Part shown: one piece after another, positions 2 to 63,888 of the stretch | Numbering within the stretch: position 1 is the first letter of the stretch | Layout: every line of letters starts with the position of its first letter | IMG/VR virus record: IMGVR_UViG_3300045988_093487 | Direction: 5' to 3' (one strand) | Length of the DNA: 64,000 bases | Origin: a virus | The notes under the pieces: generated by a model | Databases searched by the model: none | What the model was told of the DNA's origin: nothing | What the model saw: the letters and a program-made list of their open reading frames with translations, nothing else | Program-made: the position numbers and the translations under genes

Positions 2-1123
2 ATGATTATTAACGGTAAACGCGCATTAGCATACGTAACTAAGATTGATGATATCGAACCGTTACAGGGATATGATAGGGTAGAGTACGCTAGAGTAGGG
101 GGATGGGGAGTCATTGTTTCCAAGGCTGACCAGTTTAAGTCCGGAGATAAGTGTGTTTATTTTGAGGTTGACTCTAAGGTAAATGCAGATGACCCTCGGT
201 TCGCTTTTATGGCAAAGCGTGACTATAAGGTTAAGTGCATTAAGATGTGCAAGGTATACTCTCAGGGCTTGATTATGCCTGTGAGTGCATTTGATGAGTT
301 AAAGGATGCAAATATTGGTGACGATGTTACTGATATTTTAAAGGTTCGCTATTCTGTCGAAGAGGATAACGCTCGTAAGTCGGATGTGGCTGAAAAGAAA
401 TTGACTTTCTTCGAGCGTATCAAGAATTTCTTTACTGGCAAGAAGGTAACTAATCCTCGCAAGTTCCCTACTAAGTTTGAGTACGTAAAGAAGTCGGACG
501 AAGAGCGTGTTGAGAATATGCCATTTATTTTGAAGGACAAAGAGCCTTGGATTAAGACCCAGAAGATTGATGGAACTTCTTCTACTTATATCATGGAAAA
601 GAAACCGTTTGGCCGTTGGGAATATTATGTATGTTCTCGCAATGTGCGTCAGCTTGACCGTAATCAGTTCACTTGGCACAATAAGGGCGGTAACGCTGAA
701 TCTAATGTGTACTGGGATATGAACGACAAGTATCATATTGATGAGTTCTTGAAGCGTTACATCAAGGATAATAACCTAAAGTATGCGGCATTGCAGGGTG
801 AAACCGCTGGCCCTAATCTTCAGGGTAATCCTCACAAGTATGGTGAAGTATGTTTCTTTGGTTACAATTTGATTCGTTCTGACGTTGGGCGTATCAATTC
901 TTTGGATGCAAAGAAGATTTGTAATGCTAATGGAATTGATTGGGTTCCTATCGCAGATGAGCATTATATCTTACCCGATGATATGGAGACTTTAAAGCTG
1001 GATGCTGATGGTGAGTGTATTGTTGGCACTGGCTTGCGTGAAGGTTGGGTTTATCGTAGTCTTGACGGTCAGCGCTCTTTTAAGAATGTTAGCCGTAAGT
1101 ATATGATGAAGCATGACGAATAA
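2..1123 (+). CDS. ATP-dependent RNA ligase (Rnl-like nucleotidyltransferase)
   Basis: KxDG adenylation motif (KTQKIDGTSSTY) after an N-terminal domain; ORF starts at window edge; sits in an RNA-repair neighbourhood. Confidence 0.55.
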   Translation: MIINGKRALAYVTKIDDIEPLQGYDRVEYARVGGWGVIVSKADQFKSGDKCVYFEVDSKVNADDPRFAFMAKRDYKVKCIKMCKVYSQGLIMPVSAFDELKDANIGDDVTDILKVRYSVEEDNARKSDVAEKKLTFFERIKNFFTGKKVTNPRKFPTKFEYVKKSDEERVENMPFILKDKEPWIKTQKIDGTSSTYIMEKKPFGRWEYYVCSRNVRQLDRNQFTWHNKGGNAESNVYWDMNDKYHIDEFLKRYIKDNNLKYAALQGETAGPNLQGNPHKYGEVCFFGYNLIRSDVGRINSLDAKKICNANGIDWVPIADEHYILPDDMETLKLDADGECIVGTGLREGWVYRSLDGQRSFKNVSRKYMMKHDE

Positions 1124-1137
1124 TCTAAAATAAGGAG

Positions 1138-1185
1138 AAACGCCGATACTGTCTTTAATGTGAAGAAAAGTCGGCGTTATTTATT
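1138..1185 (+). terminator. rho-independent terminator
   Basis: hairpin aacgccga...tcggcgtt followed by atttatt. Confidence 0.5.
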
Positions 1186-1187
1186 AA

Positions 1188-1415
1188 ATGGCATATTATA
1201 CCTACGAGCAGTTGGTAAATAAGATAAATAATGGCGAAGTAATTTATTTCGTTAATGCTGAATGCGATATTACAGAGTTTTCTTTTGATGGTCATTATAA
1301 AATGACAATATCAAATCTAATGAAAGTTATTTTTAACAAAGAATTAACCGAAGAAGAATTTAATGAACGCTTCACATATTATGTGAGACATTTCAAGATT
1401 GGCGGTAAAAAATGA
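1188..1415 (+). CDS. hypothetical protein
   Basis: 75 aa ORF with ATGA overlap to next gene. Confidence 0.4.
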   Translation: MAYYTYEQLVNKINNGEVIYFVNAECDITEFSFDGHYKMTISNLMKVIFNKELTEEEFNERFTYYVRHFKIGGKK

Positions 1416-1780
1416 ATAATGAAAAGTGTATGAATTGTGGAACTACAGTTGATGTTGAAGGTGTTGATATTTTGCCGCTTAAATATGGCAGTAGGTTTGA
1501 TGGTTGGGGGACGAGAGTTTTTCTCTGTAAGAAATGCTTGAGCGCTAGTCCATTTACTTCTATTGTTGCGGTAACAAACAAGGAACTTTCTGAGAGCAGT
1601 GATGCAACAGACGAAGATTTGCTTGAGTATAAGAATGAAGATGATATGTTTGATTACATCGAGTCCTTATCTCTTGAAAGTCAGGAAAAATTTTTTAACA
1701 GTAACGCTTACGGCGAGTTCTATACAAAACTGTCACCGGCTGTATGGTTGATGGCAGAAAGGAGTAGGGTGAATGGCTAA
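1412..1780 (+). CDS. hypothetical zinc-ribbon protein
   Basis: CxxC...CxxC pairs (CMNCG, CKKC) and an acidic C-terminus. Confidence 0.45.
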   Translation: MNNEKCMNCGTTVDVEGVDILPLKYGSRFDGWGTRVFLCKKCLSASPFTSIVAVTNKELSESSDATDEDLLEYKNEDDMFDYIESLSLESQEKFFNSNAYGEFYTKLSPAVWLMAERSRVNG

Positions 1781-2615
1781 TTATCAGAAAATCTTAGAGA
1801 GATTAAATCGTAGAAAAGACTATATCGAGCTAAATAGAAAATGCAAGGTCGTATTTGTCGGCCTATTTGGTAGTCAGAATTATGGACTTGATGATAACGA
1901 TTCTGACATTGATTGTGTTGTTGTTACAATGCCATCACTCGATGATTTAATTAGTGGTAAAACTGATGTAAAGACACTAACTCAATCAGAGTTCTCATCT
2001 GATTCTTCCGATGATGGTCAGGTAAAGTTGATGGATATTCGTGATTTTGCAAAACAGTTGGCAAAGGGCAGTTTTGTTAATCTTGAGGCGTTATTCTCTG
2101 ATTATGTCATTGTGGATGACTCTTTTAGAGATTTTTATAATGTTAGAAATAAAATTTACGATAGATATATCTGGCATTACCAGAACGCTGTATATGGTGC
2201 TATTCACCATATCTTAAACTACTACGAGATGAACGCTTGCGCTAACGAAGAAAATAAACAGTCAAAGCGTATGTATGAAGCGTTGCGTCTGAAGAATCTT
2301 TATAATCAACTTACGGATAAGAGTGACGTAGAGTCAAATTCGCGTCCAGAATTTTATATTGCCAATTTATCTGAAAGATGTTCTATCGGGAATGTAAAGT
2401 GCGGTGTTCTTGATAGTGCACAGTTTTTTGATAATGTAAAAGATATTGAAGCGCCTAGCACAAAAGAACCAAAGGTAGCGGAGTCTTTGTGTGGATTTAA
2501 CATTCAGATTTTGGCAAATCTTACCATTAAGAATAGTATAACTGGTAATTTGTACAGAAATAATTATGCTGCGAGTTCTGTAAGTTGTGCAAAAACATCA
2601 TACACAACCGCTTGA
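1773..2615 (+). CDS. Pol-beta superfamily nucleotidyltransferase
   Basis: GS-x9-DxD motif (GLFGSQNYGLDDNDSDID) typical of minimal nucleotidyltransferases. Confidence 0.5.
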   Translation: MANYQKILERLNRRKDYIELNRKCKVVFVGLFGSQNYGLDDNDSDIDCVVVTMPSLDDLISGKTDVKTLTQSEFSSDSSDDGQVKLMDIRDFAKQLAKGSFVNLEALFSDYVIVDDSFRDFYNVRNKIYDRYIWHYQNAVYGAIHHILNYYEMNACANEENKQSKRMYEALRLKNLYNQLTDKSDVESNSRPEFYIANLSERCSIGNVKCGVLDSAQFFDNVKDIEAPSTKEPKVAESLCGFNIQILANLTIKNSITGNLYRNNYAASSVSCAKTSYTTA

Positions 2616-2640
2616 CAAAGCTAGAAAGTTTTGATATAAT
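2612..2640 (+). promoter_or_regulatory. sigma70-like promoter (TTGACA, 17 bp spacer, TATAAT)
   Basis: cttgacaaagctagaaagttttgatataat. Confidence 0.55.
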
Positions 2641-2663
2641 AACTACAGAAACGGAGAGATAGG

Positions 2664-3677
2664 GTGAAGTGTAAGACAGTCGATGATGTATTAAAAGCGA
2701 TGTCTGTAGACGATGTATTTACGAACAATCCTTCAATTTTGAAAGCAGAGTATCGTGAATATTTAAAGATGTTTCATCCAGATTTTCACAATGGTGAGAT
2801 GACCTATCAAGAAGTAACCTCAAAAATTGTGATGCTCTATGAAAAGGCCACAGACTTAATCGCTAGAGGTGCATGGGAAGAATCTAATAAGATTCGTTTA
2901 AGCAAACCAAACGGAAAAACGCTTATCGTATCGTATCTGAAAGAATACGGTTTTGAACTTGGAAAGATGTATTTATGTAATAATCATATTGTATATGTCA
3001 TTCCGAGACAACACAAGAAGTATTACGATAACTATATTAGTTCAATTAGATTTTCGTGTCCTAGAGATATGATGCAGAGTGTTGATTACGCGCTACCGCA
3101 TATTGTTCAAAATTTTGAGAACAACGAAGAGTGCGTGATTATCATTAAGCGCGAACATGGCTGTGTTCCTCTTTCTGAGGTATGGAATAATTTCAATAAT
3201 AAGATTCCTATTAAGCACACAGCTTGGGTAATTTCACGCTTACTTAATCTTGCTTGCTTCTTGTCGTATAATAATGTGGTTCACAATGGTATTGACATTA
3301 ACAGTTGTTTTGTTGATATTGAAAAACATGGAATTATGTTATACGGTGGATGGTGGTATACACGCCCTGTTGATGCAAAGATGATTGGTGTTAGCAGCGA
3401 AGTGTATGATGTTATGCCGCCGTCTGCGAAGCGCAACAAGAAATCTAAGAAAAGCACTGATATGGAATGTATTAAGATGCTTGGGATTAAGTTACTTGGA
3501 TGCACTTCAAAAATTTCAGATGCAACAGTTCCAGACCAGATTATGATGTGGTTAAGAACTGGTTCTGGTGAATACCCTCCTACAGAAATGAAAAGATGGG
3601 AAATGTCACTTGACGCAGCATTTGGAAAACGCACGTTTACAAAAATGAATCCAGAAATGGGTAAAATTAAAGTTTAA
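2664..3677 (+). CDS. J-domain-like / kinase-fold-like protein
   Basis: N-terminal HPD motif in a J-domain-like context (KAEYREYLKMFHPDFHNGE); kinase-catalytic-loop-like HNGIDINSCFVD; weak. Confidence 0.35.
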   Translation: MKCKTVDDVLKAMSVDDVFTNNPSILKAEYREYLKMFHPDFHNGEMTYQEVTSKIVMLYEKATDLIARGAWEESNKIRLSKPNGKTLIVSYLKEYGFELGKMYLCNNHIVYVIPRQHKKYYDNYISSIRFSCPRDMMQSVDYALPHIVQNFENNEECVIIIKREHGCVPLSEVWNNFNNKIPIKHTAWVISRLLNLACFLSYNNVVHNGIDINSCFVDIEKHGIMLYGGWWYTRPVDAKMIGVSSEVYDVMPPSAKRNKKSKKSTDMECIKMLGIKLLGCTSKISDATVPDQIMMWLRTGSGEYPPTEMKRWEMSLDAAFGKRTFTKMNPEMGKIKV

Positions 3678-14944: not shown

Positions 14945-15703
14945 ATGAATATGGTAAACTCAAAGATGAAGGGTAATATTGCAGAATCGCGTGTTCTTTA
15001 TGAATTTGTTTAGAGGGGAATACCAGTTTCAATACCTTATGGCGATAATGAACGCTATGATATGATAGCGGAATTTAATGGGAAACTGAACAAGATACAG
15101 ATAAAGTTTTGTAATCAACAGATAGTTGATGGTTCGATAAGTTGCCCATGTTCTAATATAGTGAGTCCATTAACAAAAAGTAAGCACAGGGAATTATATG
15201 TTAATGACGTTGATTATATGGCATTTTACATATATGTATGGGATGTTGCTGTTATAATTCCAACAAGTTACATAGGGAATAGGATTCAGATAAAGATTAG
15301 AAAAGAACGCACAAAGAATAATCAAACTACAGCATCTACTTTTGTTGATGATTTTACATTTGATAAGATTGTTGGTACAGATATTCGTAATGTGATAGAA
15401 GAGCAACAAAATACCTACGAGAAGGCATATAATAGATGTATTGATTGTGGATGTATCATATCTGATAGAGCCGTAAGATGTTTAAAATGCAGAAACTTGA
15501 AGCAATACGAAGAAACAGCGAATCCGAATATGATAGATAGGGATACGCTCAAATCTATGATTAGAAATACACCGTTTAAGCATATTGCATCTATATGTGG
15601 AGTCTCGGATAACTGTATTAGAAATTGGTGTAAAAGGTATAATCTTCCATACCGCACATCTGATATTAAGAAATATACAGATGACGAGTGGAATGATATA
15701 TGA
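14945..15703 (+). CDS. Hjc/PD-(D/E)xK-type homing endonuclease with C-terminal Zn-finger/HTH, containing an in-frame TAG
   Basis: MNMVNSKMKGNIAESRVLYEFV-TAG-RGIPVSIPYGDNERYDMIAEFNGKLNKIQIKF matches Hjc-like nuclease motifs (GxxxE...D...K) across the TAG; CIDCGC...CLKCR zinc finger; the ORF track only shows the part from 15062. Confidence 0.5.
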
Positions 15704-19483: not shown

Positions 19484-19582
19484 TTACCCCTTATACATAA
19501 TAGGTGTTTAGATGAGATATTTAGGTGGTAAGAGTAGAATCGCAAAAGATATTTCAGATTATATCAATTCAGTGATAGGAAA

Positions 19583-19596
19583 TCGTGATTTTATCC
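19583..19596. repeat. left inverted repeat of the methyltransferase-1 invertible segment
   Basis: tcgtgattttatcc; its partner at 19716-19731 is the reverse complement apart from a 2-bp (ta) insertion. Confidence 0.65.
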
Positions 19597-19715
19597 GGTA
19601 ACTGCCTTCCGGCCTGAACATCTCGCCACATGGCGATTAAATACGGGTGCGCGTCATTAAGAATTTTGTGATTTGCATTGACACGTGACTCGATAGAACA
19701 GCTACCGCAAAACAA
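19597..19715. other. invertible segment (about 119 bp) inside the methyltransferase-1 coding sequence
   Basis: bounded by inverted repeats; encodes the methyltransferase motif I region on the opposite strand. Confidence 0.6.
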
Positions 19716-19731
19716 GGATATAAAATCACGA
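19716..19731. repeat. right inverted repeat of the methyltransferase-1 invertible segment
   Basis: ggatataaaatcacga, reverse complement tcgtgattttatatcc. Confidence 0.65.
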
Positions 19732-20197
19732 AGTCAACATACGATTACGTGAAAGCACACAAAGACGAAGACCCCGGATTAACCGGATATGTTGGTTTTG
19801 CGTGTAGTTATTCTGGCAAGTGGTTCGGTGGTCTTGCGAGAAATAAGCGCGGTGAAGATTTCTGTGCTGGTGCAAATCACAGCATTTATCGTGACCTAAA
19901 TGGTTTGAAAAACGCGGAGTTCTTGTGTGGCGATTATCGAGATGTATCAATCCCGGACGATTCGGTTGTATATTTAGACCCGCCATACAAAGGAACTACT
20001 GGATATTCTACTGGTGATTTTGACCATGAAGCGTTTTGGGAATATGTAAGAGAACTTTCAAAAAGATGCACAGTTCTTGTAAGCGAAGAGACTGCTCCTG
20101 ATGATTTTGCCTGTGTCTGGTCTAAACAGATTGCAAGACAGGTAGATGTGCGGCAAGGTCGAGTCTATAAAACTGAAAAATTATTTTCCAAAACCAC

Positions 20198-20226
20198 TTG
20201 ACAAATTTCCAGAAATTTGGTATAAT
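20198..20226 (+). promoter_or_regulatory. conserved phage promoter
   Basis: ccaaaaccacTTGACA, 17 bp spacer, TATAAT atAG. Confidence 0.65.
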
Positions 20227-24798: not shown

Positions 24799-26456
24799 AT
24801 GGCAAACTATACAGTCTACCACTTACATACTATGCTGAGTAATGCGGTCACGAACATTGACTCAGTTACTACATATAAGCAGTACATAGAAAAGGCAAAG
24901 GCGTGTGGAATGACTGCTATGGCCTTTTCAGAGCATGGTAATATCTTTGAATGGGTTCATAAAAAAGATGCCATTGAGGCCGCTGGCATGAAATATATTC
25001 ATGCCATGGAAGCATACCTTACCGAGCGTATTCCAGACGAGGGTGAGGAAAAGATTCGTGATAATTACCACTGCGTTTTGATTGCTAGAAACTGGGAGGG
25101 TGTTAAGGAACTTAACGTCTTGCAGGGTAAGGCATTTAATCGTGTTGACGGTCATTATTACTATGCACCTCGAATTACGTTCGCTGAACTGTTCTCCACG
25201 AGTAATAATATTATTATTACCACTGCCTGTGTTGCGTCTGCATTGTGTAGAGGAACCGAAAGCGCAAAGGAATCTTATCTTAGATTCTTAACAAGGCATA
25301 AAGATAGATGTTTCTTGGAAGTCCAGCACCATAATACGCAGAAGCAGTTTGAGTATAATAGATACTTGGCGAATCTGTCCAAGGAAACTGGTCTTAGATT
25401 GATTGCTGGTACTGATACCCACTGTTTGAACGCGGAGCATGAACTTGGCCGTAGCGCACTACAGCGTGGCAAGGGCGTTTTCTTCGATGATGAAGTCGGT
25501 TGGGATTTAACATGGAAAACCTACGATGAACTTGTCGAGGCATACAGAACACAAGATGCTCTCAGTGAAGAGGAATATATGTCTGCAATCAATAACACAA
25601 ATGTTATGGCAGATATGATTGAAACCTTTGAGCTTGATAGAAGTTTCAAGTACGCAAAGATTTACGATGATGGCGAGAAAGTCCTTCGTGAAAAGTTGTT
25701 TGCACCAGAAACTATCGAACCGATTATCAAAGAGGGATTTTCAAGAGAAGAAGTAACTGCGCGTTTGGAGCAGGAAATTGACACTTTTAAGGCTTTGAAT
25801 GCGACTGACTTTATTCTTCTCGAAGACCATATTGTGCGTTGGGAACATTCGCATGATATGTGGCAAGGCCCTGCACGTGGAAGCGCCGCTAGTTCCTTGG
25901 CTTTGTACGCTTTGGGTGTGACAGAAGTAAACCCATTGAAATATGGATTTTATTTCTGGCGATTCATGGATAAATCTAAGTACAGCTTGGCTGACGTTGA
26001 TATGGATAACTCGGCAAAAGACCGTGATAAATTGAAGTTTTGGATGTTGAACGACCACCTAGACCTTCCGAATGTCAAGACTTGCGAAATTATTACGTTC
26101 AACACAATCGCATTAAAGGGTGCAATTCGTGATATCGGACGTGGATTGGATATGCCTTTGGATGAGGTTGATACGATTGCAAAGGCCGTTCATGAAGTAG
26201 CAGTCGATGAAGAAAAGATTGTTACTATTGATGATAGCTGGCGTAAGAAATATCCAGAGCTGTTCAAGTATGTTGATATTGTTATTGGCACTATCGTTAG
26301 TATCGGTTCTCATCCGTCTGGTGTTGTTGTTTCTGACCATGACATTGAATCAGAATTTGGTCTGTGTTATCTAAAAGATGACCCCTATCCTGTCTCCTGC
26401 ATCAATATGAAGGAACTTGATTCCCTTAATTTTACCAAACAGGATGCCCTTGGGTA
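24799..26456 (+). CDS. dnaE: DNA polymerase III alpha (DnaE-type), exon 1 (PHP domain and start of palm)
   Basis: PHP motifs YHLHTMLS and FSEHGN; ends ...NFTKQDALG at a 5' splice site cttgggT|. Confidence 0.75.
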
Positions 26457-26681
26457 AACAATCCTGCCCAAGTAAAAGCGAGTTATATGCTGGGAAGTGC
26501 TTAGAGCCTCAGTTACCAAAGTGTGACAATACTGAGGATTGCACAATCAGCAGGCACGATAAGTTCTGCCTCAACGACTATGGGAATATCCCAACTGTCA
26601 TAGAGTGATTTATGACAGTAACCTCGCTGAAATGATATAGTCTGGTCTGCATTTAATAGTGCAGAGTCAAGCAGAAATGAC

Positions 26682-26710
26682 TTGACATTTTGTTTGCTTT
26701 CTGATATAAT
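26682..26710 (+). promoter_or_regulatory. conserved phage promoter inside the intron, upstream of the endonuclease ORF
   Basis: gaCTTGACA, 17 bp spacer, TATAAT atAtG. Confidence 0.55.
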
Positions 26711-26782
26711 ATATGTAAAGGTGGTGATTGTATGGCGAAAGCAAGATATACGAAAGTGTAGTTCTATAATGAAATACTCCGG

Positions 26783-27799
26783 TTGTATAAAGAGTATGGC
26801 GAGATAAACCAAAATATCTACGCAAAACACACAAGTCTTGATGTTAGCTTTAGACAGTATTGTAATAAGTACGGTGGATTAAAGCAGATATGTAAAGACC
26901 TTGGAATAGAGTATAGCTATTATAATGAAGTTTCCAAAGAGCAAGCGCTTGAACGTGGGCGAATGTTGTTAGAGCAATATGGATTCTTGCGAAAGGAACT
27001 TTGTCAAAAGAACGGAATATCATCTAGTACAGTTGCGAAACTGTTTGGAAGTTATCAAAACTTTTATAAGGAAGTTGGATATAACACAGACTTTCGTAGA
27101 GATGTTCCAGTTGAAGATGTAAGAAAAGATATACTCGAATTTATAACCGAAACTGGTTCTAAGTCAATTACAGACTACAAGAAAGCGCATCGGTATTCAC
27201 AATCTATAATTGATAGATGTGGTGGGTGGCATACAATTCTTGTTGATATTGGAGTAGAACCAAAGAAATGGCGTAATGGTAAAGACAATATAATCAAACA
27301 GACACGTGAATTGATAAACAAATATGGTTATCTGTCAAGTAAACTAATAGAAGATAATTGCGATTTTACTTTGCAAGCGTTGGAGTATTACTTAGGAAAC
27401 GCTGATAGTATTTGCAAATATTTCGGTAATGAGCATTTATTTGACTACGGCAGAAGTAGTCAAGAACTCAGAATAGCAGAGTTACTCAAAGATATTCTAG
27501 GTGTCGGGAATTTTTCACGTGAAGTTACATGGGATTGGTTGTTGTCAGACAGCGGCAATCATCTGTATGTGGACTTTTATATTGATTCTTTAAAAGTTGC
27601 GATAGAATATGACGGTGAGCAACACTACAAATACGTTGAAAGGTTTCATAGAAATTATGATGGGTTTCTTGAATATCAGCGTAGAGATAATATAAAGAGT
27701 TCGTTGCTTGCAGAACATAACATCAAACTTATTAGAATATCATATACGCAAGAAATATCAGAAAAATATCTAAGAGATATATTAAGCAAACAAAATTAA
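26783..27799 (+). CDS. intron-encoded homing endonuclease (PD-(D/E)xK / Vsr-like C-terminal domain with N-terminal HTH repeats)
   Basis: C-terminal YVDFYIDSLKVAIEYDGEQHY nuclease-like motif; 3-4 N-terminal helix-turn-helix repeats; lies entirely within the dnaE intron. Confidence 0.55.
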   Translation: MYKEYGEINQNIYAKHTSLDVSFRQYCNKYGGLKQICKDLGIEYSYYNEVSKEQALERGRMLLEQYGFLRKELCQKNGISSSTVAKLFGSYQNFYKEVGYNTDFRRDVPVEDVRKDILEFITETGSKSITDYKKAHRYSQSIIDRCGGWHTILVDIGVEPKKWRNGKDNIIKQTRELINKYGYLSSKLIEDNCDFTLQALEYYLGNADSICKYFGNEHLFDYGRSSQELRIAELLKDILGVGNFSREVTWDWLLSDSGNHLYVDFYIDSLKVAIEYDGEQHYKYVERFHRNYDGFLEYQRRDNIKSSLLAEHNIKLIRISYTQEISEKYLRDILSKQN

Positions 27800-27809
27800 C
27801 AAAATTACG

Positions 27810-29344
27810 TGGATAATGTTGGTATCATCAATGAAACCTGTAAGTTGGCTGGTATCGAGAGATTATCGCCAAAAACGATTGACTTTGAGGATGATGCAGT
27901 TTGGAATAGTATCAAGGAAGATACATCTTTGATTTTTCAGATGAACTCCAACTATGGTCAACGCACAGTTGATAAGATGTTATCACCAGAGGTTTACAGT
28001 AAGATTAAGAAGCAGATTCCTAATATGACACGTTTGGATTTGCTGACATTCATCAATGCTCTTATTCGTCCTTGTGGTAAGGGAGTTTATGATGATGCGA
28101 CGAACGGTATCGTATCTAAAACAGGAATTAAAGAGATTGATAATTTGCTTGGCTCTTCTATGGGCTATGCAATTATGCAAGAGCCTCAGATGGCTTTTGT
28201 TCAGGAGTTCTGTGGTTACGATTTCTTGAGAGCTGATAAGCTCCGTAAGATTATCGGTAAGAAACTTGGTACACGCGACCAGCTTCCTATTATTAAGGAA
28301 GGCTGGGAAAAGAACGCAAAGGTCAAATATCATTTAACTGATGAGCAATCTGACAAGATTATCAATCCGTTCTTACAGTGTATCCTTGATGCTACACGGT
28401 ATTCGTTCTCACTGGTTCATAGTTTGAGCTATTCTTGTATTAGTTATGAATGTGCATATCTGCGTTATCATTATCCATTACAGTATTTGACCTCTTGCCT
28501 TAACGCATGGAACGGTGATGACAACAAGACAGCAGAAGCTATTGAGTACGCAAATAGTCGCAAGGTAAAAATTCTTGCGCCTAAGTTCAGACATGCAAAG
28601 GCAGAATACTTCTATGACCTTGCTACGAACAGTATTTATAAGGGTACGAGCAGTATCAAGGGATTGAATGCAGGATATTCTGATTTCTTGTATTCTTTGA
28701 AGGATAACACTTATAAGACATTCACTGACCTGTTGTATGATATTCAGGCATCGGGTATGCCTCGTGACCAAGTTGAAACTTTGATTAAACTTGATTACTT
28801 TGAAGAGTTCGGTACTTGTAGAGAGTTGGTAACAATCTTTAAGCAGTTCCAGTTCTTTAAGAAGGGCGAAGCGAAAACGATTGCTAAGAGTAAGATTCCA
28901 GACGAGATTACAATGAACATTATTAAGCGCAATGCTAACGAAACCGAGAAGCAATTCAATAAGTTAAATTGTCATAATATCTTGAACGAGATTGAACAGT
29001 ATATTATGACTATGAATCTTGGTGATGTTGACATCAAAACCAAGATTGCTAATCAGCTTGAATATATGGGTTACATTGGTATTAAGACTGACAAATCCGA
29101 AGATAGACCTAAGATTGTTATTCTTGAGATGAAGGTCATGAAACAGCGTGAATCTGTTGAGCCTTGGGGAGTTATCATTGATGCGCAGTCCATTGGTTCT
29201 GGTAAGCGTAGTTCTTATACAGTTCCTTACAAACTGTATAAGAAATGCAAGTTCAATAAGAATGATGTAATTAAGATTCGTGATTGGTATAAGAACAAGC
29301 GTGGTTACTTCTATATTACTGATTATGAATTTGTGGTTATGTAA
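27810..29344 (+). CDS. dnaE: DNA polymerase III alpha (DnaE-type), exon 2
   Basis: continues DnaE palm/fingers homology (NVGIINETCKLAG...); the first codon is completed by the last nucleotide of exon 1. Confidence 0.7.
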
Positions 29345-30893: not shown

Positions 30894-31352
30894 ATGCAGA
30901 ATGAGTTAAAGAACATTGAGAAACTTAAACCTTGGGAGTTTCTCAAGAAATACTGTTTCCCTTGGCTTGGTGCAGAAGTAGATTACCCGGATTTGTTCGG
31001 AAAATATGGGATGACATACTGTGGAATCGGAGATAAGTGGTGTTGGTATTCAGAAAAAGATGCTCGTGTTCTGAATGATACAAACTGGGATAAGAGTCGA
31101 ACTTATTGTAAAGTAACTGACGTTACCTTTGAAGAAGCATATAAGATGGTGGCACTTACTACTGCTTATTGGCAACCTATGCACAATAAGCAGTCTAAAG
31201 AATATCAGGAATACGAACGGCTTGACATGATTCGTAGACTGTTTATGCGTCATCCAGAACAGAGGGCTGAATATTTCAAAGAATGCCCAGACGAGAAAGA
31301 CGTATATTATAAGAGATTCCCGGAGGAAAAGGCACTATATGAAACTGAGTAA
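30894..31352 (+). CDS. hypothetical protein
   Basis: 152 aa ORF. Confidence 0.4.
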   Translation: MQNELKNIEKLKPWEFLKKYCFPWLGAEVDYPDLFGKYGMTYCGIGDKWCWYSEKDARVLNDTNWDKSRTYCKVTDVTFEEAYKMVALTTAYWQPMHNKQSKEYQEYERLDMIRRLFMRHPEQRAEYFKECPDEKDVYYKRFPEEKALYETE

Positions 31353-31890
31353 TTTCTTTTTACATTTAAAGAAAATTCTTGTTCATAAGTATTGGGTATT
31401 TTACTTCTGTTGTAAGGCTGGTATTCCTTGGCAGGGAATTACACATGACCTTAGTAAATTCTCGCCGGTCGAGTTTTGGGAAAGTGTAAAATATTATCAG
31501 GGCAATAGAAGTCCCATTGACGCTTGTAAGGAAGAGAATGGTTACTCTATGGCGTGGCAACACCATAAAGGACGCAACCCGCATCATTATGAGTATTGGC
31601 AAGATAACTTTGATAAAGGTGGGGAACCGTTAAAGATGCCATATAAATACGCACTTGAAATGGTGTGTGATTATCTTGGTGCAGGACGAGCATATATGGG
31701 CAAATCTTTTACATTAGATAAAGAATGGCAATGGTGGCTTGGCAAGTGCTCCAAGCCTATTGCGATGCACCCACAGACTAAGAAGTTTGTAAATAGTATG
31801 CTTTGGGAGATTAAAGAAGATAATTCTTATGACGCACTAAAGGATTACTCACGTGCAATCTATGATAACGCTAATATTGATTGGAGCTGA
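31339..31890 (+). CDS. hypothetical protein
   Basis: 183 aa ORF. Confidence 0.4.
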   Translation: MKLSNFFLHLKKILVHKYWVFYFCCKAGIPWQGITHDLSKFSPVEFWESVKYYQGNRSPIDACKEENGYSMAWQHHKGRNPHHYEYWQDNFDKGGEPLKMPYKYALEMVCDYLGAGRAYMGKSFTLDKEWQWWLGKCSKPIAMHPQTKKFVNSMLWEIKEDNSYDALKDYSRAIYDNANIDWS

Positions 31891-31948
31891 TTTTTTGATT
31901 GATGTCAAATCTTATGTTTAGAAGCGAAAGACGGATATACAAGATTAT

Positions 31949-32683
31949 TTGTCTAAAACAAAGCCGTCGAGGGATACACTCGTAATAATCCAGTTTGGAG
32001 ACAATCCGGCAAGCAATGCTTATGTAAATGGAAAGATACGTGATTGCGAAGAAGTTGGATTGCGCACGATAATATATAAACTTCCAGTAGATACGGAATA
32101 TGCAGAAGCGTTGAGAATTTTAATAATGTCGCAAGAAAATTCAAAGGTCGCTGGTGTTATAGTTCAGTTACCTGTTCCAGAACATCTAAAAGGAATTGCG
32201 ACACATATTAAACCAGAATTTGACGTTGATGGTTTTTTACCTAATACTAAGTTTGTCCCTGCAACTCCTAAAGGGGTAATTGAGTTATTGGATAACGAAC
32301 TCAATTATAATTTCGTTGGGAAAGTTTGCACAGTAATTGGCAAAAGCCACATAGTTGGTGAACCGTGTGCAAATTTAATTAAAGGACGTGGGGCAACAGT
32401 AATTTGGTGTGATAGCCATACAGTTGATTTAAAAAAATGGTGTTTACAATCAGATTTAATTGTGACAGCCACTGGTAGACCGGGGCTAATTACACCAGAT
32501 ATGATTAGGCCAGAAACCGTAGTGATTGATGTCGGGATTACTCGTGGTGGTGATGGTAAGTTGTGCGGTGATGTTGATAAGTCTTGTTACTCTGATGATG
32601 CGCTAATTACACCAGTGCCCGGTGGCGTAGGACTTCTTACACGAGTTGCATTACTTGAAAATTTAGTATATGAGGTGAAATGA
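31949..32683 (+). CDS. folD: bifunctional methylenetetrahydrofolate dehydrogenase/cyclohydrolase
   Basis: VQLPVP, DVDGF, TPKG, GKSHIVGEP, TATG, PVPGGVG motifs; the N-terminus appears short and the only in-frame start is TTG. Confidence 0.65.
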   Translation: MSKTKPSRDTLVIIQFGDNPASNAYVNGKIRDCEEVGLRTIIYKLPVDTEYAEALRILIMSQENSKVAGVIVQLPVPEHLKGIATHIKPEFDVDGFLPNTKFVPATPKGVIELLDNELNYNFVGKVCTVIGKSHIVGEPCANLIKGRGATVIWCDSHTVDLKKWCLQSDLIVTATGRPGLITPDMIRPETVVIDVGITRGGDGKLCGDVDKSCYSDDALITPVPGGVGLLTRVALLENLVYEVK

Positions 32684-34436: not shown

Positions 34437-34952
34437 ATGAAGTATATGGGAAGCAAGGCAAGAATTGCAAAAGACATTTGCCCGATTATTCAGTCGTTTA
34501 TTGACAAGAGTGGCGCATACGTGTATATCGAAGGATTCGTTGGCGGCGCAAACATAATTGATAAAATCAACTGCGATATACGTCATGGAATTGATAAGAA
34601 TAAATATCTTATTGCACTTTTGAAATACGTCGCCAATGGTGGCGAATTACTTGGTAGAGTATCTAAAGATACGTATACCGAAGTAAAACAGAATAAAGAT
34701 AATTACCCGAACTGGCTTGTTGGTAATGTTGGATTTCTTGCATCTTACAACGGTAAGTTCTTTGATGGCGGTTATGCAAACACCGTAATTGAGCATACTA
34801 AATACGGTGATAAAGTCCGTGACTATTATCAAGAAGGAAAGAGAAATCTTGAACAGCAAGCACCGAATCTAAAGGATATTATCTTTACGTCAGGTGATTT
34901 TCTCGAATTATGGAAGAGCTTCGTCGGTCAAAAGGAAGTAGTTTTTTATTAA
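34437..34952 (+). CDS. Dam-like DNA adenine methyltransferase, N-terminal 171 codons only (OFF; C-terminal catalytic part lies inverted downstream)
   Basis: MKYMGSKARIAKDI, FVGGANI (motif I), SYNGKFFDGG; stops at KEVVFY just before the expected DPPY motif. Confidence 0.7.
   Translation: MKYMGSKARIAKDICPIIQSFIDKSGAYVYIEGFVGGANIIDKINCDIRHGIDKNKYLIALLKYVANGGELLGRVSKDTYTEVKQNKDNYPNWLVGNVGFLASYNGKFFDGGYANTVIEHTKYGDKVRDYYQEGKRNLEQQAPNLKDIIFTSGDFLELWKSFVGQKEVVFY
34937..34950. repeat. left inverted repeat of the methyltransferase-2 invertible segment
   Basis: agtagttttttatt; perfect reverse complement at 35191-35204. Confidence 0.7.
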
Positions 34953-35190
34953 ATATATCCCAAAGCCTTACCAATTACAAATAGCTTCTCGGTAGGATAT
35001 TCACGACCAGTTGCGCTGATTGTTCTTGCAACTTTCTTTTCCCAAATACAAGTAAAATCATCCGGCATCCATTGTTCACTAACGATGACGATGTTGTTCT
35101 TACTAAGTTCCCTGCAAATATCATAGAATTTATCGTAATCAAATCCCTTTGATACATCATACTTTGTAGTATTTAAGTAAGGAATATCAA
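34951..35190 (-). other. invertible segment carrying the methyltransferase-2 C-terminal catalytic region (minus strand in this assembly)
   Basis: minus-strand translation FDIPYLNTTKYDVSKGFDYDKFYDICRELSKNNIVIVSEQWMPDDFTCIWEKKVARTISATGREYPTEKLFVIGKALGYI aligns with the methyltransferase-1 C-terminus (LDPPYKGTTGYSTGDFDHEAFWEYVRELSKRCTVLVSEETAPDDFACVWSKQIARQVDVRQGRVYKTEKLFS); inversion fuses in frame ...KEVVFYFDIPY... Confidence 0.7.
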
Positions 35191-35204
35191 AATAAAAAAC
35201 TACT
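35191..35204. repeat. right inverted repeat of the methyltransferase-2 invertible segment
   Basis: aataaaaaactact. Confidence 0.7.
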
Positions 35205-44084: not shown

Positions 44085-45272
44085 ATGTGTAAAGTGGGAT
44101 ATACTGCAATTATTGTAGCCGGAGATTTTGGCAATGATGGCAAAAAGTCTGGTTTGGCAAACAAGTGTTATGATATCTTAAAAAATGATAGTCGTATAGA
44201 AAGTGTGCTGTTATTCAATGGTGGCGATTATGATGAGATTCAAAATATTTTGAATTTAATCAACAAAAAGCATTATGATTTTGTTTTTTGGTGGCCCAAT
44301 ATTGATAACAGCTTCGTAAAAAATAGGAACGTAAAAGATTACGACCCGTTTACAATGCTTGTCACATCTAAGAGAGATGATGCTGACAAATATTCATTCC
44401 AAGAACTTCTGCAAAGAACTATTTCTGTAAAGGCAAACCTGTCATTTAAGTTTAAGAGAACAGATAGTGGGCTTTTCAATATTATGATATTCGACACACT
44501 TGGTTCTGTGTGGTATGACGGAACGGATATTGAACTTGCCATGCAAATCTGTATGGATAGGTTAATTTTTCTTAAATCTATGACACGACAAAATACAACG
44601 CAATCTATCACAGATAAGGGTCTTATTTTGTCGTGGTATTTTGACCAGTTTAAACAAAATGAGTATAAATCGGATAGAGTTATTGATATTCCAGATGAGA
44701 ACGATTTTGTTGATACAGTAAAAAGATATGCTACAAAATTCCAAGAGTTTATGCCGACAGATTGCGTAACAACACGTTTTGTCGGTAACGCTAGTTTACG
44801 AAAGTTGCCGCCGCAAGTTGGACGATGCGGAAAGGGTATGCCGAGTTTTAGAAAAAATGGGTATATTTTCGTATCTAAGCGTAATATTGATAAACGATTT
44901 ATCACACTTGAAAATTTCGTTCCGGTATATATGGATAACGATAAACTTATGTATTGTGGTACAGAGAAGCCGTCTGTTGACACACCTGTGCAGATGTTGC
45001 TCTATAATAAGTATATCAATATAAACTACATTCTTCATAGTCATTGTTACATTAAAAATGCGCCGTTTACAAAATCTGCGATTCCGTGTGGCGCTATAGA
45101 AGAGGCCAGAGAAATTGAAAGTGTGTTGACTGATACAACAAAGACGTTTTATGCAGTCAATCTTATCGGACACGGCTCTATCGTGATGTGGAATAATATG
45201 GCAGATTTCCATTCCGTCTACGAAAAAGGTTTGATATACTATAAACGTACATTACCAGAGATTATGTTTTAA
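44085..45272 (+). CDS. hypothetical protein (395 aa)
   Basis: long ORF with no motif I can name. Confidence 0.45.
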   Translation: MCKVGYTAIIVAGDFGNDGKKSGLANKCYDILKNDSRIESVLLFNGGDYDEIQNILNLINKKHYDFVFWWPNIDNSFVKNRNVKDYDPFTMLVTSKRDDADKYSFQELLQRTISVKANLSFKFKRTDSGLFNIMIFDTLGSVWYDGTDIELAMQICMDRLIFLKSMTRQNTTQSITDKGLILSWYFDQFKQNEYKSDRVIDIPDENDFVDTVKRYATKFQEFMPTDCVTTRFVGNASLRKLPPQVGRCGKGMPSFRKNGYIFVSKRNIDKRFITLENFVPVYMDNDKLMYCGTEKPSVDTPVQMLLYNKYININYILHSHCYIKNAPFTKSAIPCGAIEEAREIESVLTDTTKTFYAVNLIGHGSIVMWNNMADFHSVYEKGLIYYKRTLPEIMF

Positions 45273-57256: not shown

Positions 57257-58054
57257 TTACGCTACCACATGCCCAGTGTCGTCCACCGTCGCGTCCTGCG
57301 GCAGAATTATACAGGGGCGGATACCAGCCAAGTCGTAGCAGGCGAAAGTACTCCGGTCGCCAACGGAGTCGATAGTAATGGCATATCCACTGTCGGCACA
57401 GAATGGAGAGCGGAGCCACCAGTATGTGGCAGAGCCGTCGAGGAATGCGATACGCTTAGAATCCGAGCTATCATCCGCACAGCCCTTGAAATAGGCCAGC
57501 TCCGCACCTTCGCCGCTCGGCATATAGGGGAAGTTGAAACTCGTTTCGGTCGCACTGAGCAGGAAAATCTTCGCAGACAGGCCGTTCGAGCCGCTGGTGA
57601 CAATCGTAGACGTGTTGCCGCCTTTGCGGTACGGGAGCTTTACCTGCTTGATGGCGTTCTTGATGTTCGGCTCGAGAAGGTTTAGGAATGTGCTGTTCAG
57701 GTAGGAGTGGATGGTGCTGTTGGCGTAGTCGTTAGTGCCCGAACTACGCCACTGGCTGTTTTCGTAGATGTCTTTCATCAGCAGCCACGTGCCATTGCAG
57801 CTTGCGTCATAAATACCAGCATCCGGAATGCCCTGATGCACCACCAGCCAGTCGTAGTCCTTGCCGCTCACGGCGATTTTGACGGTCTTACCCACTTCGT
57901 AGCCGCCAAGCAGCGTGCCGCGCTGATACCACAATCTAGCAACCCCATTCACACCAATGTATGCCTTCTGGACTTGACGTGCTTTACCGTCTACTCCGAT
58001 ATACATCTTGGAGATGCTTTTCGCCACCCCCCCAATTCCGATATATGCACTCAT
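57257..58054 (-). CDS. putative receptor-binding protein with DUF1566/C-type-lectin-like C-terminus; candidate DGR target
   Basis: C-terminal ATYWWLRSPFCADSGYAITIDSVGDRSTFACYDLAGIRPCIILP resembles the DUF1566 ending (YW..S...A...G...VRP); the whole gene is far more GC-rich than the phage; GC-driven overlapping ORFs in other frames are artefacts. Confidence 0.5.
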   Translation of the reverse strand: MSAYIGIGGVAKSISKMYIGVDGKARQVQKAYIGVNGVARLWYQRGTLLGGYEVGKTVKIAVSGKDYDWLVVHQGIPDAGIYDASCNGTWLLMKDIYENSQWRSSGTNDYANSTIHSYLNSTFLNLLEPNIKNAIKQVKLPYRKGGNTSTIVTSGSNGLSAKIFLLSATETSFNFPYMPSGEGAELAYFKGCADDSSDSKRIAFLDGSATYWWLRSPFCADSGYAITIDSVGDRSTFACYDLAGIRPCIILPQDATVDDTGHVVA

Positions 58055-59104: not shown

Positions 59105-62100
59105 TTAACCAACTCTTTTCCAGATGTGCACATAGTAGGCGGCGGGCTGCACGGTATAGCTGCGACCGTAGATTGAGTTCGAGCGGGAAGCATCAAAGTA
59201 AACATCATACGTCGAACCTGACGTACCACTGTAGCCACCCCAAGAAGTATTGATTTCTACGAATTTTAAAGCTCCCGATGATTTCAAAGACGCTTTTGAA
59301 CCACGGAATGGGGAGGACTCTGCGGTTGCTTCTATTAAGCTGCCCGTGATGTTCGGCAGTCCGGCCTCCACCGTGCTTCCCGCTGTGTAGCCTGTGCCAG
59401 CACCCATCAGCACGCGGTTAAATGCAATCTCCTGCCATGTACCGCCGAACAGTGCGGCGGGACTGGTAGTGCTGACTGTTTGAAAAATACTGCCCACCGG
59501 GTAGGCAGACAGGCCGCTGTCCGCAGAAAGTGTTCCGTCCGCATCGACCGTCAGACCGCTGCCCACCTTCACGCCGCCCAGCGTGGTGGCGGTGGCAGCA
59601 GGGAGGGTGTATTCCTGAGCATCAGCACTCAATACACCTTTATTAGAAACTTTTAGCCCCTCTCCTACAATGATGCCACCTAGCTCTGTCGTCGTTGCAG
59701 GGGGCAGCATTGCTCCACCAATAGGGGTTTGACCAAAACTCATAAGGATATCTTCTCGGATAATGTAATAAAAAGCTTTAATAGATTCCGTTGGGATGTT
59801 ACGAGCACGGATTCTCAAATAATTAGGTAATGATTCTGTTGAAGTAAAATAACATTTTTTAGCGACTACATTACTATCTGGTGCAATGACAAGTGCAACA
59901 CAATCACTTCCTGTAATTCCTGTAGCTACAATGTCAATATAATTCGGATATGCAGAGTTACTATCTTGGTTCCATCCAGTTGTGGGAATCGTAATAGATA
60001 CAAGATTTATTTTTTCTGCTGCCTCATAACCAAGTGCTCCGTCAACGTTGTCTTTTATTAAACTAATCAAGCCTTTATTACCAACTGTAATATTGTCTCC
60101 AATTTGTACAATACCGGCATTAGTTCTCGTAGCATAATTAGTGTCTGTAACAACGCTTGTTTTAGAATAAGGAGTGATAGCTTGGTCAACAGAGGGGGCA
60201 TTTGCGGAGTATTTTAATACATATCCCCAATTGTCTTTTTTAGCTATAGATACATTGATAATAGAATTAAAGAATGTAGAGTCCGTGTTTATCCATAGTT
60301 CTGCATTACTCTGACCGTTTCCACCCGATGTTGGGATTAAATAGAAAAACTCTTTTTTTGTTGAATTGTTTTCGATATCTACATCGGAAGATTTTAGCTT
60401 ATCATCATACATAATATAAGAGAAAATGTAGGCTGTAGACAAATCGTTACTATTTGTTTGTGCTAAGTCATGGATGAATAATGTAATATTCTTACTATAA
60501 GCGACAGAGTTATTTTCTGTTGAAACAATTGTAGGACAGTTAATCTCAATTTTTATTAAATCACCGTCTGATGTGTTAGAAATGTTTCCTACATGAAACC
60601 ATGTTTGTCCGGTTACAGTAGACGCAGGGATGGTTTCTGTTAATATATATCCTTTTGGAGCAGCGCCGTCAATTGTGCTCGTCTCATTATTGCCCTTTGT
60701 GATGATGATTTTATCCCCTGTTGGACGCAAATCTTTGATGTACGTCGCATCTATTTGTTGACCAATAGAGTCATTTGTTGCGCTGTCTGCGCTAGTCGCA
60801 GTGTCAGCGTTACCAGTTAGATTACCAACAAACTTAGCATCACCGCTCATAGTAATGTCGCCAGTCATTGTACCGCCACTAAGTTTCAACGTGCCAACTA
60901 ATGCGTTTGCTACATTAGTCTCGCTTGTTTTAGCATTAGTTTCACTAATCTTCGCTTTATCTTCAGATGCCTTTGCTGCGTTTTGACTTACAAGAGCAGC
61001 GGCGGCAGATGCTGCGGCATCATTAGCAGATTGCTGTGAATTATCCGCATAGCTACTTGCGTTCTGTTCTGAAGCAGCAGCGTTAGTCTCGCTTGTTTTA
61101 GCATTAGTTTCACTAATCTTCGCTTTATCTTCAGATGCCTTTGCTGCGTTTTGACTTACAAGAGCAGCGGCGGCAGATGCTGCGGCATCATTAGCAGATT
61201 GCTGTGAATTATCCGCATAGCTACTTGCGTTCTGTTCTGAAGCAGCAGCGTTAGTCTCGCTTGTTTTAGCATTAGTTTCACTAATCTTCGCTTTATCTTC
61301 AGATGCCTTTGCTGCGTTTTGACTTGCAAGAGCAGCGGCGGCAGATGCAGCGGCATCATCAGCAGATTGCTGTGAATTATCCGCATAGCTACTTGCGTTC
61401 TGTTCTGAAGCAGTTGCGTTTATTTCTGATTGCTTTGCCGCCTTTTCTGATGCCAATGCTTTGGTTTCACTGGTTTTAGCAGCATTTTGAGAATTTAAAG
61501 AGGCTTGTGCCGAATTTGCAGAATCACTTGCAGAACTAGCCGAATCATCAGCGCTTGTCTTAGATGCGTTTTCTGAAGCTTTCGCGTTTTGTTCCGAAAT
61601 CTTAGCATTAGCTTCTGATGTAGCAGATGCAGTCTATGAAGCCTTTGCTTTATTTGCACTATCCGCTGCATTTGTCTCCGATGTCGCGGCATTCTGCTCA
61701 GACTGTTTAGCATTAGCTTCAGAAGTAGCGGCGGCTTGTGCAGATTTTTGAGCAGCAATCTGATAATTATGTGCATTTATTTCAGATTGTCTAATACTCT
61801 CAGCGGAAGCAGCGGCGGCATCTTTATATGCGTTTGCGTTAGCTTCAGAAGCGGCTGCATTACTAGCTGATACGGCTGCTGCATTTTTATAACTTTCTGC
61901 ATTGACTTCAGAAGCCTTTGCGTTGTCTTCAGACTTCTTAGCGGCCTCGGCAGCATTCATAGCGTCATCGTGGTAGCTACCAATTATTTTTTGGAATGTT
62001 GCAATAGCATCTGTCCAAACATCTGGATTTTTTGATGCAGAACCAACATCGAGCAGTCCTTTTTCGATATTCAAAACCTATGGTTTTGTATGTAAAATAT

Positions 62101-62841: not shown

Positions 62842-63888
62842 CTACCTCCATAATTCGTAATAGAATTGATTCATCCTTTGTATTAGCTTATATGAATTAC
62901 CATGTTCTGCATGAGCAACCCAACAGCTATAACATTGGTCTATCTTTTCTTTAGTTCTACGACCTTTTACAACAAGTTTAACCATTTTGCGCAATTTACG
63001 CTTTTCGTTCTTAACATTATCACCAAGAATTGACATAACAACTTTGCCAGTTTCAGTAAGCCTGAACTTAAATCCCAAGAAAGGAATACCCTGACCAACT
63101 CTATACAGTTTAGTTTTCTTAGGATGTAGTTCAAGACCAATTTTAGCTAATTCTTCTTGAATCTCGTGCATACACTTAATCAAGTAATTTCTGTCGTGAT
63201 GAATAAGAACAAAATCATCCATATATCTGATATAATACTTAATGTGCATACGTTCTTTAATCTTATGGTCAAGTTTATCCAGAACAGAAATGCCAGCAAT
63301 CTGAACGACTTGGCTACCGGGATTATACCCGGTATCACCGAGATATTGTTCATTTAATATTCTACAGACTCTATCTGCATATTCTGCTGGTAATTTCTCT
63401 CTAAACAAGGCATTTGTTGTATCGTGCCGCATATTATCATAATAGTGTTTAATGTCGCATTGAAGAACCCAAGCATCAAGACCGTTCTTTCTATAGCATC
63501 TTTGCAGATGACATTTTAAACGACCTCTAGCAAAATCAGTTCCTTTTCCTTTTTGACAAGCACAATTATCATAAATAAAACTTCGAGTCATTAACGGATA
63601 CACTATATTGTCATTAAGGCTACGTTGATACACTCTGTCTCTAAAAGCTATGCTTACAGCAATTCTTTCTTTTGGATGAGTGATATGAACCGTCTTAGTC
63701 GGGCGAGGTTGGTATGTTCCGTCTGCTAGTTGCTTTTCCAATTTAAGAACCTGTTCAATTCCATGAATATAGAAATTAGCAACAGATTCTTTCCAGCTAA
63801 CATTTTTCTTACACTTATATAAAGAATCAAGTAGGTGCTCGAAGTCTAGGACATTTACTACTTGATTCGATTCCTAATTGTTACTCAT
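62842..63888 (-). CDS. reverse transcriptase, DGR-type, with in-frame TAG at codon 5
   Basis: GTYQP, RIAVSIAFRDRVYQRSL, QCDIKHYYDNM (motif A), GYNPGSQVVQIAGI (SQ variant of the QGxxxSP motif, the DGR hallmark), YIRYMDDFVLI (YxDD); the conserved N-terminus LDFEHLLDSLYKCKK... is reachable only from ATG 63888 through the TAG at 63874-63876; the ORF track starts at an internal TTG; the gene ends with TAG at 62842-62844 and a TGA 5 codons later. Confidence 0.65.

Follow-up and report, generated by a model that had tools for sequence, protein, structure and literature searches.

What does it mean when the middle of a phage DNA methyltransferase gene is written on the opposite strand to its two ends? 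The question is raised by positions 19512-20201 of a 64,000-nucleotide stretch of DNA (termed here the window) from IMG/VR virus record IMGVR_UViG_3300045988_093487, which belongs to an uncultured human-gut phage with a genome of about 115–150 kb. At these positions lies MT2, a gene for a D12-class (Dam-like) adenine methyltransferase which is split by an antisense segment carrying its motif I; a paralogue, MT1, is found at 34437-35204. The most probable answer, held here with good though not full confidence, is that both genes are reversible DNA-inversion ON/OFF switches (invertons), and that the window happens to show both in the OFF position.

In the window, MT2 is made up of the following parts.

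19512-19594, plus strand: 5′ part of MT2, from the start codon through the end of the left arm (codons 1–27 plus 2 nt).
19583-19594, no strand assigned: left inverted-repeat arm, TCGTGATTTTAT, invariant in 19 genomes.
19595-19719, minus strand: invertible segment of 125 bp with the S-adenosylmethionine (AdoMet)-binding motif I (SLFCGSCSIE...QLPD), antisense, that is OFF, in the window.
19720-19731, no strand assigned: right inverted-repeat arm, ATAAAATCACGA.
19720-20201, plus strand: 3′ part of MT2, from the right arm to the stop codon, with motif IV (DPPY).

As it stands, the gene yields only pieces. The N-terminal open reading frame (ORF) has 29 codons (19512-19601), opens with MRYLGGKSRIAKD and closes with MRYLGGKSRIAKDISDYINSVIGNRDFIR and a stop; translation in the OFF state runs into the flipped segment and ends at 19599-19601, two codons past the left arm. 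The 3′ ORF is callable from a GTG at 19749 to 20201 and gives 150 amino acids including DPPY, while the minus strand of the segment codes for ...FISLFCGSCSIESRVNANHKILNDAHPYLIAMWRDVQAGRQLPDKIT. A first-pass annotation of the window, made from its letters, had located the split ORFs and the antisense motif I region correctly. It had measured the inverted stretch as 119 bp between imperfect repeats of 14 and 16 nt; the actual arrangement is 125 bp between arms that form a perfect 12-bp inverted repeat.

Reverse complementing 19595-19719 in silico produces, as had been predicted, a single MT2 ORF of 690 nt and 229 codons with no frameshift. A crossover anywhere inside the 12-bp arms leads to the identical product. 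The supposed need for a crossover in the left part of the repeat, by which a TA difference would preserve the frame, thus arose from counting bases outside the perfect 12 bp as part of the repeat. The restored protein matches Pfam PF02086 (MethyltransfD12) with E=2e-19 and 70.7 bits against a cut-off of 22, and it contains motif I as SLFCGSC and motif IV as DPPY. By this match and these motifs MT2 is a D12-class N6-adenine DNA methyltransferase, with its activity predicted. A survey of the window for perfect inverted-repeat pairs of at least 11 nt with spacers of 20-3000 returned 71 pairs, of which the MT2 pair alone, when flipped, gives an ORF that runs through both junctions (229 codons, versus 54). 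Because it is the only such pair, the restoration goes beyond what chance would provide. Both arms lie inside the restored 229-codon ORF, as in an intragenic inverton.

A tblastn search with the restored MT2 protein reveals the paralogue MT1, at 34% amino-acid identity, and reveals it in two pieces: residues 1-145 match the plus strand at 34437-34910, and residues 152-225 match the minus strand at 35200-34979. Its parts are as follows.

34437-34952, plus strand: 5′ part of MT1, 171 codons, with a TAA stop directly after the left arm in the OFF state.
34937-34950, no strand assigned: left arm, AGTAGTTTTTTATT, invariant in 14 genomes.
34951-35190, minus strand: invertible segment of 240 bp, antisense (OFF) in the window, that codes for motif IV (FDIPY) and the C-terminus.
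35191-35204, no strand assigned: right arm, AATAAAAAACTACT.

The MT1 arms are a perfect 14-bp inverted repeat, 240 bp apart. Inversion in silico creates a 251-codon ORF that includes FDIPY, again with no frameshift, and its product scores 28 bits against PF02086 (cut-off 22), with motif I as GFVGGA and a variant motif IV, DIPY. Both restored proteins have a weak, distant match to T4 Dam structures. The right arm of MT1 overlaps the stop codons in the ON state, and the ATG of the next gene follows 20 nt downstream. This means that MT1 is only partly intragenic (“partly intergenic”), its right arm being at or just past the stop codon. In both genes inversion introduces a premature stop, two codons after the arm in MT2 and zero codons after it in MT1. 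It therefore holds, as the first-pass annotation had it, that two paralogous methyltransferase genes are broken by inversions, each with its own repeat pair.

Whether these inversions are reversible can be judged from other assemblies of the same phage in human-gut samples, which are cited here by L numbers. The assemblies were picked by protein look-ups, and the look-up with the MT1 OFF product selects for OFF, so that the following counts are not frequencies. Among all fetched contigs that span the MT2 switch, 14 are ON and 7 are OFF; the segment is flipped relative to the window in L001, L002, L114, L115, L117, L120-L124, L128, L129, L141 and L142. The IMG/VR relatives include both MT2 states, with breakpoints exactly at the arms, and the 19 genomes compared by sequence all have identical arms and a spacer of 125 nt. 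In L117 and L141 the 149-nt unit of arms plus segment is 100% identical to that of the window, only reversed, and the flanks of L117 are 99.3-99.7% identical to the window. For MT1 the count is 10 contigs ON and at least 4 OFF, and the exact 171-aa OFF product of the gene occurs in 13 contigs from at least 8 samples. After the MT1 segment is flipped, the window and L138 are at distance 0.0 over about 4.2 kb; L130 and L132 are separated by 0.0002.

Several results establish that the flips have recurred. With orientation normalised, 5 of the 10 inner haplotypes of MT2 and 2 of the 6 of MT1 are found in both orientations, and the haplotype test shows zero sites fixed between ON and OFF at either switch. 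On neighbour-joining trees of the flanks, orientation must have changed 4-5 times or more in MT2 and 3 times or more in MT1. The flanks are mosaic, which reveals heavy recombination among these phages; on account of this mosaicism an analysis of single-nucleotide polymorphisms in five genomes was uninformative, and it was superseded by the larger samples and the haplotype test. Taken together, the shared haplotypes, the lack of fixed sites and the trees exclude a single old inversion whose two alleles recombination has spread. Single contigs carry MT2/MT1 in the states OFF/OFF (the window), OFF/ON (two IMG/VR genomes) and ON/ON (several), so the two switches move independently, a point on which the first-pass annotation had called for a check.

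The same clean inversion is present in MEGAHIT, SPAdes, Logan and IMG/VR assemblies, and across 8 contigs compared over positions 1-21.5 kb of the window MT2 is the sole inversion. In the protein database, the MT2 ON cluster (P0121) contains 154 distinct sequences and the clusters of C-terminal OFF fragments (P0123, P0124 and P0125) contain 126. This number of distinct fragments indicates that OFF is common, and no rare defect. Degraded repeats in OFF relatives, or a frameshift in the restored ORF, would have spoken against a switch; what is found are perfect repeats, both orientations and no frameshift. Both switches thus flip recurrently and reversibly in natural populations, with breakpoints at the repeats and inside catalytic coding sequence. 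As a separate observation, the OFF-orientation MT2 of L126 (2868-3557) is still called as a 229-aa gene. The sole in-frame stop in its flipped segment is TAG, and the gene caller may have applied a TAG-recoded genetic code to this contig.

The places at which contigs break add a further line of evidence. At MT2, the last base of the left arm, 19594, is also the last base of contigs L113, L143 and L146, and contig L118 begins with the first base of the right arm, 19720; L112 probably also ends at 19594, with the caveat that its locus end may differ from its contig end. At MT1, L193 stops at 34950 and L192 at 35204, and L139 begins at 35191. In all, an arm boundary of MT2 or MT1 is the exact end point of at least 7 contigs, which come from different samples and assemblers; the breaks of L003 and L111 fall within the MT2 segment, by 9 and 21 nt. 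For run ERR636412, the Logan assembly breaks at the arm and the MEGAHIT assembly reads through in the OFF orientation. The arms, at 12-14 nt, are much shorter than the assembler k-mers (k119, k127 and k141 in contig names). Breaks at the arm boundary are therefore the expected outcome of a de Bruijn graph built from reads of both orientations, and the orientation that is assembled is set by reads that span the arms.

The arms show no variation amid variable surroundings, a sign of selection for the switch. None of the 24 columns of the MT2 arms is variable, compared to a background of 19% (P ~0.006), and none of the 28 columns of the MT1 arms, compared to 25% (P ~3e-4); the test is crude in that codon position was ignored. 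Beyond the focal species the repeats change. A sister species has an MT2 orthologue (74% amino-acid identity) with a different switch, in which the left arm lies upstream of the start codon and its partner occupies the position homologous to the focal right arm. The 252-nt segment between them comprises the ribosome-binding site, the start codon and 68 codons; L184 carries it in the ON orientation, L185 and L186 carry it inverted, and the inverted state leaves only a 142-aa fragment callable. Its repeat is 30 nt at 87% in L184 (19 nt perfect) and 15 nt perfect in L185. More distant MT2 homologues (52-60% identity) contain instead a (GA)n tract of 15-31 nt, in L009, L012, L013, L016, L017 and L020.

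L184 1462-1734, L185 1180-1462 and L186 831-1113: sister-species inverton, arms AAAAATTGATTTTAT.
About locus 2969-3186 in IMG/VR loci: (GA)n tract between the N-terminal helix and motif I, which is the site of the window's left arm.

L016, L017 and L020 are thrown out of frame by the tract, while L009 and L012 stay in frame (encoding ERERER...); from its sequence the tract looks like a site of slipped-strand phase variation of the MT2 homologue. In L009 a G10 run is also seen in the upstream N-terminal remnant. The search for the same repeats in related phages, which the first-pass annotation had recommended, thus has a divided outcome: they are present in relatives within the focal species, but outside it the 106 homologue loci contain only chance-level inverted-repeat pairs. 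The occurrence of three switch designs in one orthologous gene speaks for switchability itself being under selection.

In the proposed mechanism, recombination between the arms flips the segment and gives an intact gene (229 codons in MT2), and the reverse flip returns it to OFF. An OFF genome would make no active enzyme because motif I (MT2) or motif IV (MT1) is missing, and the phage population would then always hold both methylating and non-methylating genomes. Such a mixture could hedge the phage's bets where some hosts have restriction-modification systems, which cleave unmethylated DNA, and others have methylation-dependent (Type IV-like) nucleases, for which methylated DNA is the target. 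The two adenine methylases may even form a virus-encoded epigenetic contingency system, switched independently by the phage's own Xer-like recombinase or recombination machinery, with up to four methylation types per burst and survival of both methylation-sensitive and methylation-dependent nucleases; the chance of this is put a little short of even.

The best candidate for the catalyst is a 359-aa Xer-like tyrosine recombinase encoded at L159:8916-9992 (positions 31240-32316 of IMG/VR 3300045988_122016). It matches PF00589 (2.5e-12), PF13495 (2.2e-8) and the integrase family phrog_1 (7e-27), and its catalytic residues R, K, HxxR, W and Y are visible. The protein is seen in all close relatives and is 99.4-100% identical in five of them. 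Its gene adjoins that of a RecU-like Holliday-junction resolvase, upstream of the tape-measure gene in the structural module. The family has 1,882 metagenomic homologues, on contigs of up to 176 kb, and the PDB contains no sequence relative. A search of 185,579 species genomes for prophages, with the recombinase as query, returned one 4.7-kb contig of a metagenome-assembled genome and no sign of lysogeny. With no prophage copy, an integrase role for the protein is not evident.

A number of findings weigh against the switch as proposed, most of them against its having a dedicated enzyme. A Pfam scan of window ORFs of at least 50 aa detects no serine or tyrosine recombinase in the 64 kb. The candidate lies about 20 kb beyond the 3′ end of the window and is known from the contigs of relatives; moreover, members of its family are widespread among related large phages without these repeats, so it may mainly serve another function. 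The first-pass annotation had proposed a core, GT(A/G)nTTTT(TT)AT, common to both repeat pairs, but the MT1 and MT2 arm pairs share only TTTTAT, with a local alignment score of 6 (p ~0.04 against random k-mers from the window) that is not significant. Neither arm recurs elsewhere in about 125 kb of genome, so there is no third copy, and no dyad-symmetric core sites are evident at the arms. The unshared motif, the non-recurring arms and the lack of a dyad core argue against a single sequence-specific enzyme, and a 125-bp spacer would be short for synapsis by a classical recombinase. In addition, that both orientations appear to coexist in single samples is judged from contig breaks alone, and the bet-hedging purpose is one that we infer from the sequence. 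Whether a site-specific recombinase, with the Xer-like protein as best candidate, catalyses the strand exchange, or an enzyme-independent route does, is about evenly balanced. Of the dedicated inversion-based scheme first suggested, the recurrent, reversible flips in catalytic coding sequence are borne out, and its dedicated recombinase is a candidate only.

A recombinase-independent route is a serious rival, even if its probability is placed distinctly below one half. In this account the switch is real and needs no dedicated enzyme: template switching, or the phage's homologous-recombination machinery, acts at the short repeats, and fluctuating selection by host restriction amplifies one orientation or the other. 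It accords with arm pairs that share nothing beyond TTTTAT and occur nowhere else, with the short spacers (125-240 bp), and with the sister species, whose different left arm at another place is as expected if any repeat partner serves. The machinery is also at hand, in that MT2 adjoins genes for a Sak4-like AAA_24 ATPase, SSB and a PD-(D/E)XK nuclease, and the phage encodes the RecU-like resolvase. The apparent rate is high for such a route, however, as genomes identical over 4 kb differ by the flip alone and many samples seem to hold mixed populations. Not one of the remaining 69 perfect inverted-repeat pairs (at least 11 nt) has been found in a flipped state, and MT2 is alone in being inverted in the 8 contigs over 1-21.5 kb; this is a weak objection, since flips in essential genes would be purged.

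It is unlikely that an invertase encoded by the host, for example one of the gut Bacteroidales, flips the phage repeats during infection. Gut Bacteroidales encode dozens of invertases, the window is without a recombinase, and a 4.7-kb contig of the phage is binned in a Bacteroidales metagenome-assembled genome. Bacteroides itself has intragenic invertons with repeats of about 11 bp (10.1101/2023.03.11.532203). Against this, the binning of a short contig is a weak pointer to the host, and the phage carries XkdX, RecU and PG_binding_1 domains. These domains are more typical of Firmicutes phages.

Two further accounts were rejected. That ON and OFF are two old alleles, each made once and spread by homologous recombination with no ongoing switching, is very improbable: the mosaic flanks and heavy recombination would permit it, but inner haplotypes are identical in both orientations with zero fixed differences, contigs from many samples break exactly at the arms, and the arms are perfectly conserved. 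Decaying pseudogenes or assembly artefacts are barely credible, because both genes, non-functional as they stand in the window, have flipped segments free of frameshifts and stops, and four assembly sources agree on one clean inversion at arms so short that arm-spanning reads fix the orientation.

The inversion switch proposed for MT2 and MT1 resembles several known systems in part. Phages Mu (G segment, Gin) and P1 (C segment, Cin) have an adjacent serine invertase, crossover sites of about 26 bp and an enhancer, and swap tail-fibre C-termini over about 3–4 kb. Theirs, too, is a reversible phage-borne inversion that leads to two virion subpopulations. In contrast, the present arms are 12-14 bp, the segments are 125-240 bp and the outcome is an enzyme turned ON or OFF. 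Nor is there a serine recombinase of the PF00239 type, adjacent as in the Gin/Cin/Hin systems, in window ORFs of at least 50 aa or in about 60 kb of flanks walked in the IMG/VR relatives (about 50 kb downstream and 8.6 kb upstream of the window). The E. coli fim switch, with FimB and FimE tyrosine recombinases, 9-bp inverted repeats and a 314-bp element, is similar in its very short repeats, its small size and the plausibility of a tyrosine recombinase as catalyst. While fimS carries a promoter and has its recombinase genes adjacent, the element here is coding sequence and the sole recombinase found is tens of kb away.

Phasevarions, which depend on simple repeats in Type III mod genes or on Type I hsdS shufflons, share with MT2 and MT1 the stochastic switching of adenine methylation, ON/OFF or in specificity, and the (GA)n tract of the MT2 relatives is like theirs. 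Known inversion systems of this kind shuffle hsdS specificity modules and known ON/OFF systems use repeat tracts, whereas here a catalytic motif is lost by inversion from an orphan D12-class enzyme borne by a phage, and the benefit presumably falls to the phage genome rather than to host gene regulation. MT2 has no restriction-modification partner nearby and belongs to a replication module, which sets it apart from the Type I and III members that define phasevarions.

The closest likeness is to the intragenic invertons with premature stops described in gut bacteria (Chanin et al., 10.1101/2023.03.11.532203; Nature 2024). There, too, short inverted repeats lie within an ORF (about 11 bp in thiC), inversion splits the gene by a premature stop, detection is by orientation polymorphism in gut metagenomes, and no invertase is assigned. 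The differences are that the carrier here is a phage, that the targets are two paralogous DNA methyltransferase genes (methyltransferases are mentioned 0 times in 10.1101/2023.03.11.532203), and that MT1 has its right arm immediately beyond the stop codon. It is already known that methylases can be phase-variable and that phages can show phase variation (PMC11868660). From the same source, which cites Sorensen et al. 2021, Campylobacter phages are described as having hypermutable polyG tracts in receptor-binding genes; as cited there, this is likewise phage-encoded phase variation as bet-hedging, by slippage in host-recognition genes rather than inversion in DNA-modification genes. A literature search, covering part of the journals, returned no report of inversion switches in phage methyltransferase genes. 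The scheme had at first been called previously undescribed, and within the reach of that search this stands for phage methyltransferases, but not for its ingredients: intragenic invertons, phase-variable methylases and phage phase variation. None of the compared systems unites a phage carrier, ON/OFF control by inversion and the catalytic motif of an orphan methylase.

The phage that carries the switches is common in the human gut. Exact-protein look-ups place it in many human-gut metagenomes, with the 112-aa protein upstream of MT2 present in 381 index blocks, and ENA contig ERZ27250578 k119_15915 (115,939 nt) is 100% identical to the window over every compared stretch and probably its source. 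A near-identity search of both loci against GenBank phages gave no match, and the nearest records there, from uncultured faecal phages, reach 35-37% amino-acid identity. The window encodes 13 tRNA genes. MT2 lies in a replication and recombination module with genes for an SLT lysozyme, AAA_24, SSB, a PD-(D/E)XK nuclease, a primase-helicase and a split DNA polymerase III alpha, while MT1 is flanked by UDG and ThyX within a block of nucleotide-metabolism genes. At the 3′ end of the window are genes for lysis, tail fibres and reverse transcriptase.

Several other features of this genome were observed. An ORF of 395 codons (44085-45272) contains an imperfect 19-nt inverted repeat (44884-44902 and 45004-45022) with a 9-nt perfect core and 101 nt between arms, and flipping in silico between the cores leaves the ORF open with about 40 codons recoded. 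Contigs L149 and L150, possibly from one sample, start at 44903 and 44890. The region 44884-45022 may be a third, recoding inverton or merely a break due to strain mixture; a third switch could not be confirmed. The reverse-transcriptase gene (62842-63741, minus strand; RVT_1 9.7e-17, YMDD motif) is near the tail-fibre genes and two genes for DUF6273 proteins, with window 57257-58054 (minus strand) and L151 7725-8933 as the coordinates listed with it, and the arrangement is probably that of a diversity-generating retroelement. Within the tail-fibre ORF 59105-61456, about three tandem repeats of 168-170 nt (60915-61420, minus strand) encode ...ASEQNASSYADNSQQSA..., and their copy number and sequence vary among relatives.

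The DNA polymerase III alpha gene (24799-29344) is split: between its two ORFs (24799-26457 and 27809-29344) lies a third with an HNH-associated repeat (26783-27799), an arrangement that suggests a mobile intron or homing-endonuclease insertion. A 213-aa PD-(D/E)XK_5 ORF in the tRNA array (15062-15703), probably a gene for a mobile endonuclease, is present in L140 and L144-L146 and absent in L141-L143. Numerous independent contigs of about 113–116 kb (L140-L144, L147, L177 and L178) end within about 100 nt of window position 1, and contigs of 148-161 kb continue upstream past it; a genome terminus, a terminal repeat or some other variable junction may account for this. In IMG/VR contig 094428, 1,081 nt are inserted into the RNA-ligase gene (window ~508-512). 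Finally, L170:2606-5056 (IMG/VR 122016) encodes an 817-aa protein with a match to the RNA-dependent RNA polymerase (RdRP) fold family PF05183 (9.7e-12) and a resemblance to the single-subunit RNA polymerases of YonO type or crAss type.

The usual view of phage methyltransferase genes is that they serve against restriction and are fixed. If two of them do carry a heritable, reversible ON/OFF switch, this would mean that a phage hedges its own epigenetic state against opposing host defences, and it would extend intragenic invertons from bacteria to viruses, with a prevalent human-gut phage as a direct test system. Such switches split genes in assemblies and break contigs at the repeats, which leads to functional genes being annotated as fragments or pseudogenes. 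The three switch designs, namely the intragenic inverton, the 5′-end inverton and the (GA)n tract, would, if true, point to strong and recurrent selection for switchable self-methylation in phages.

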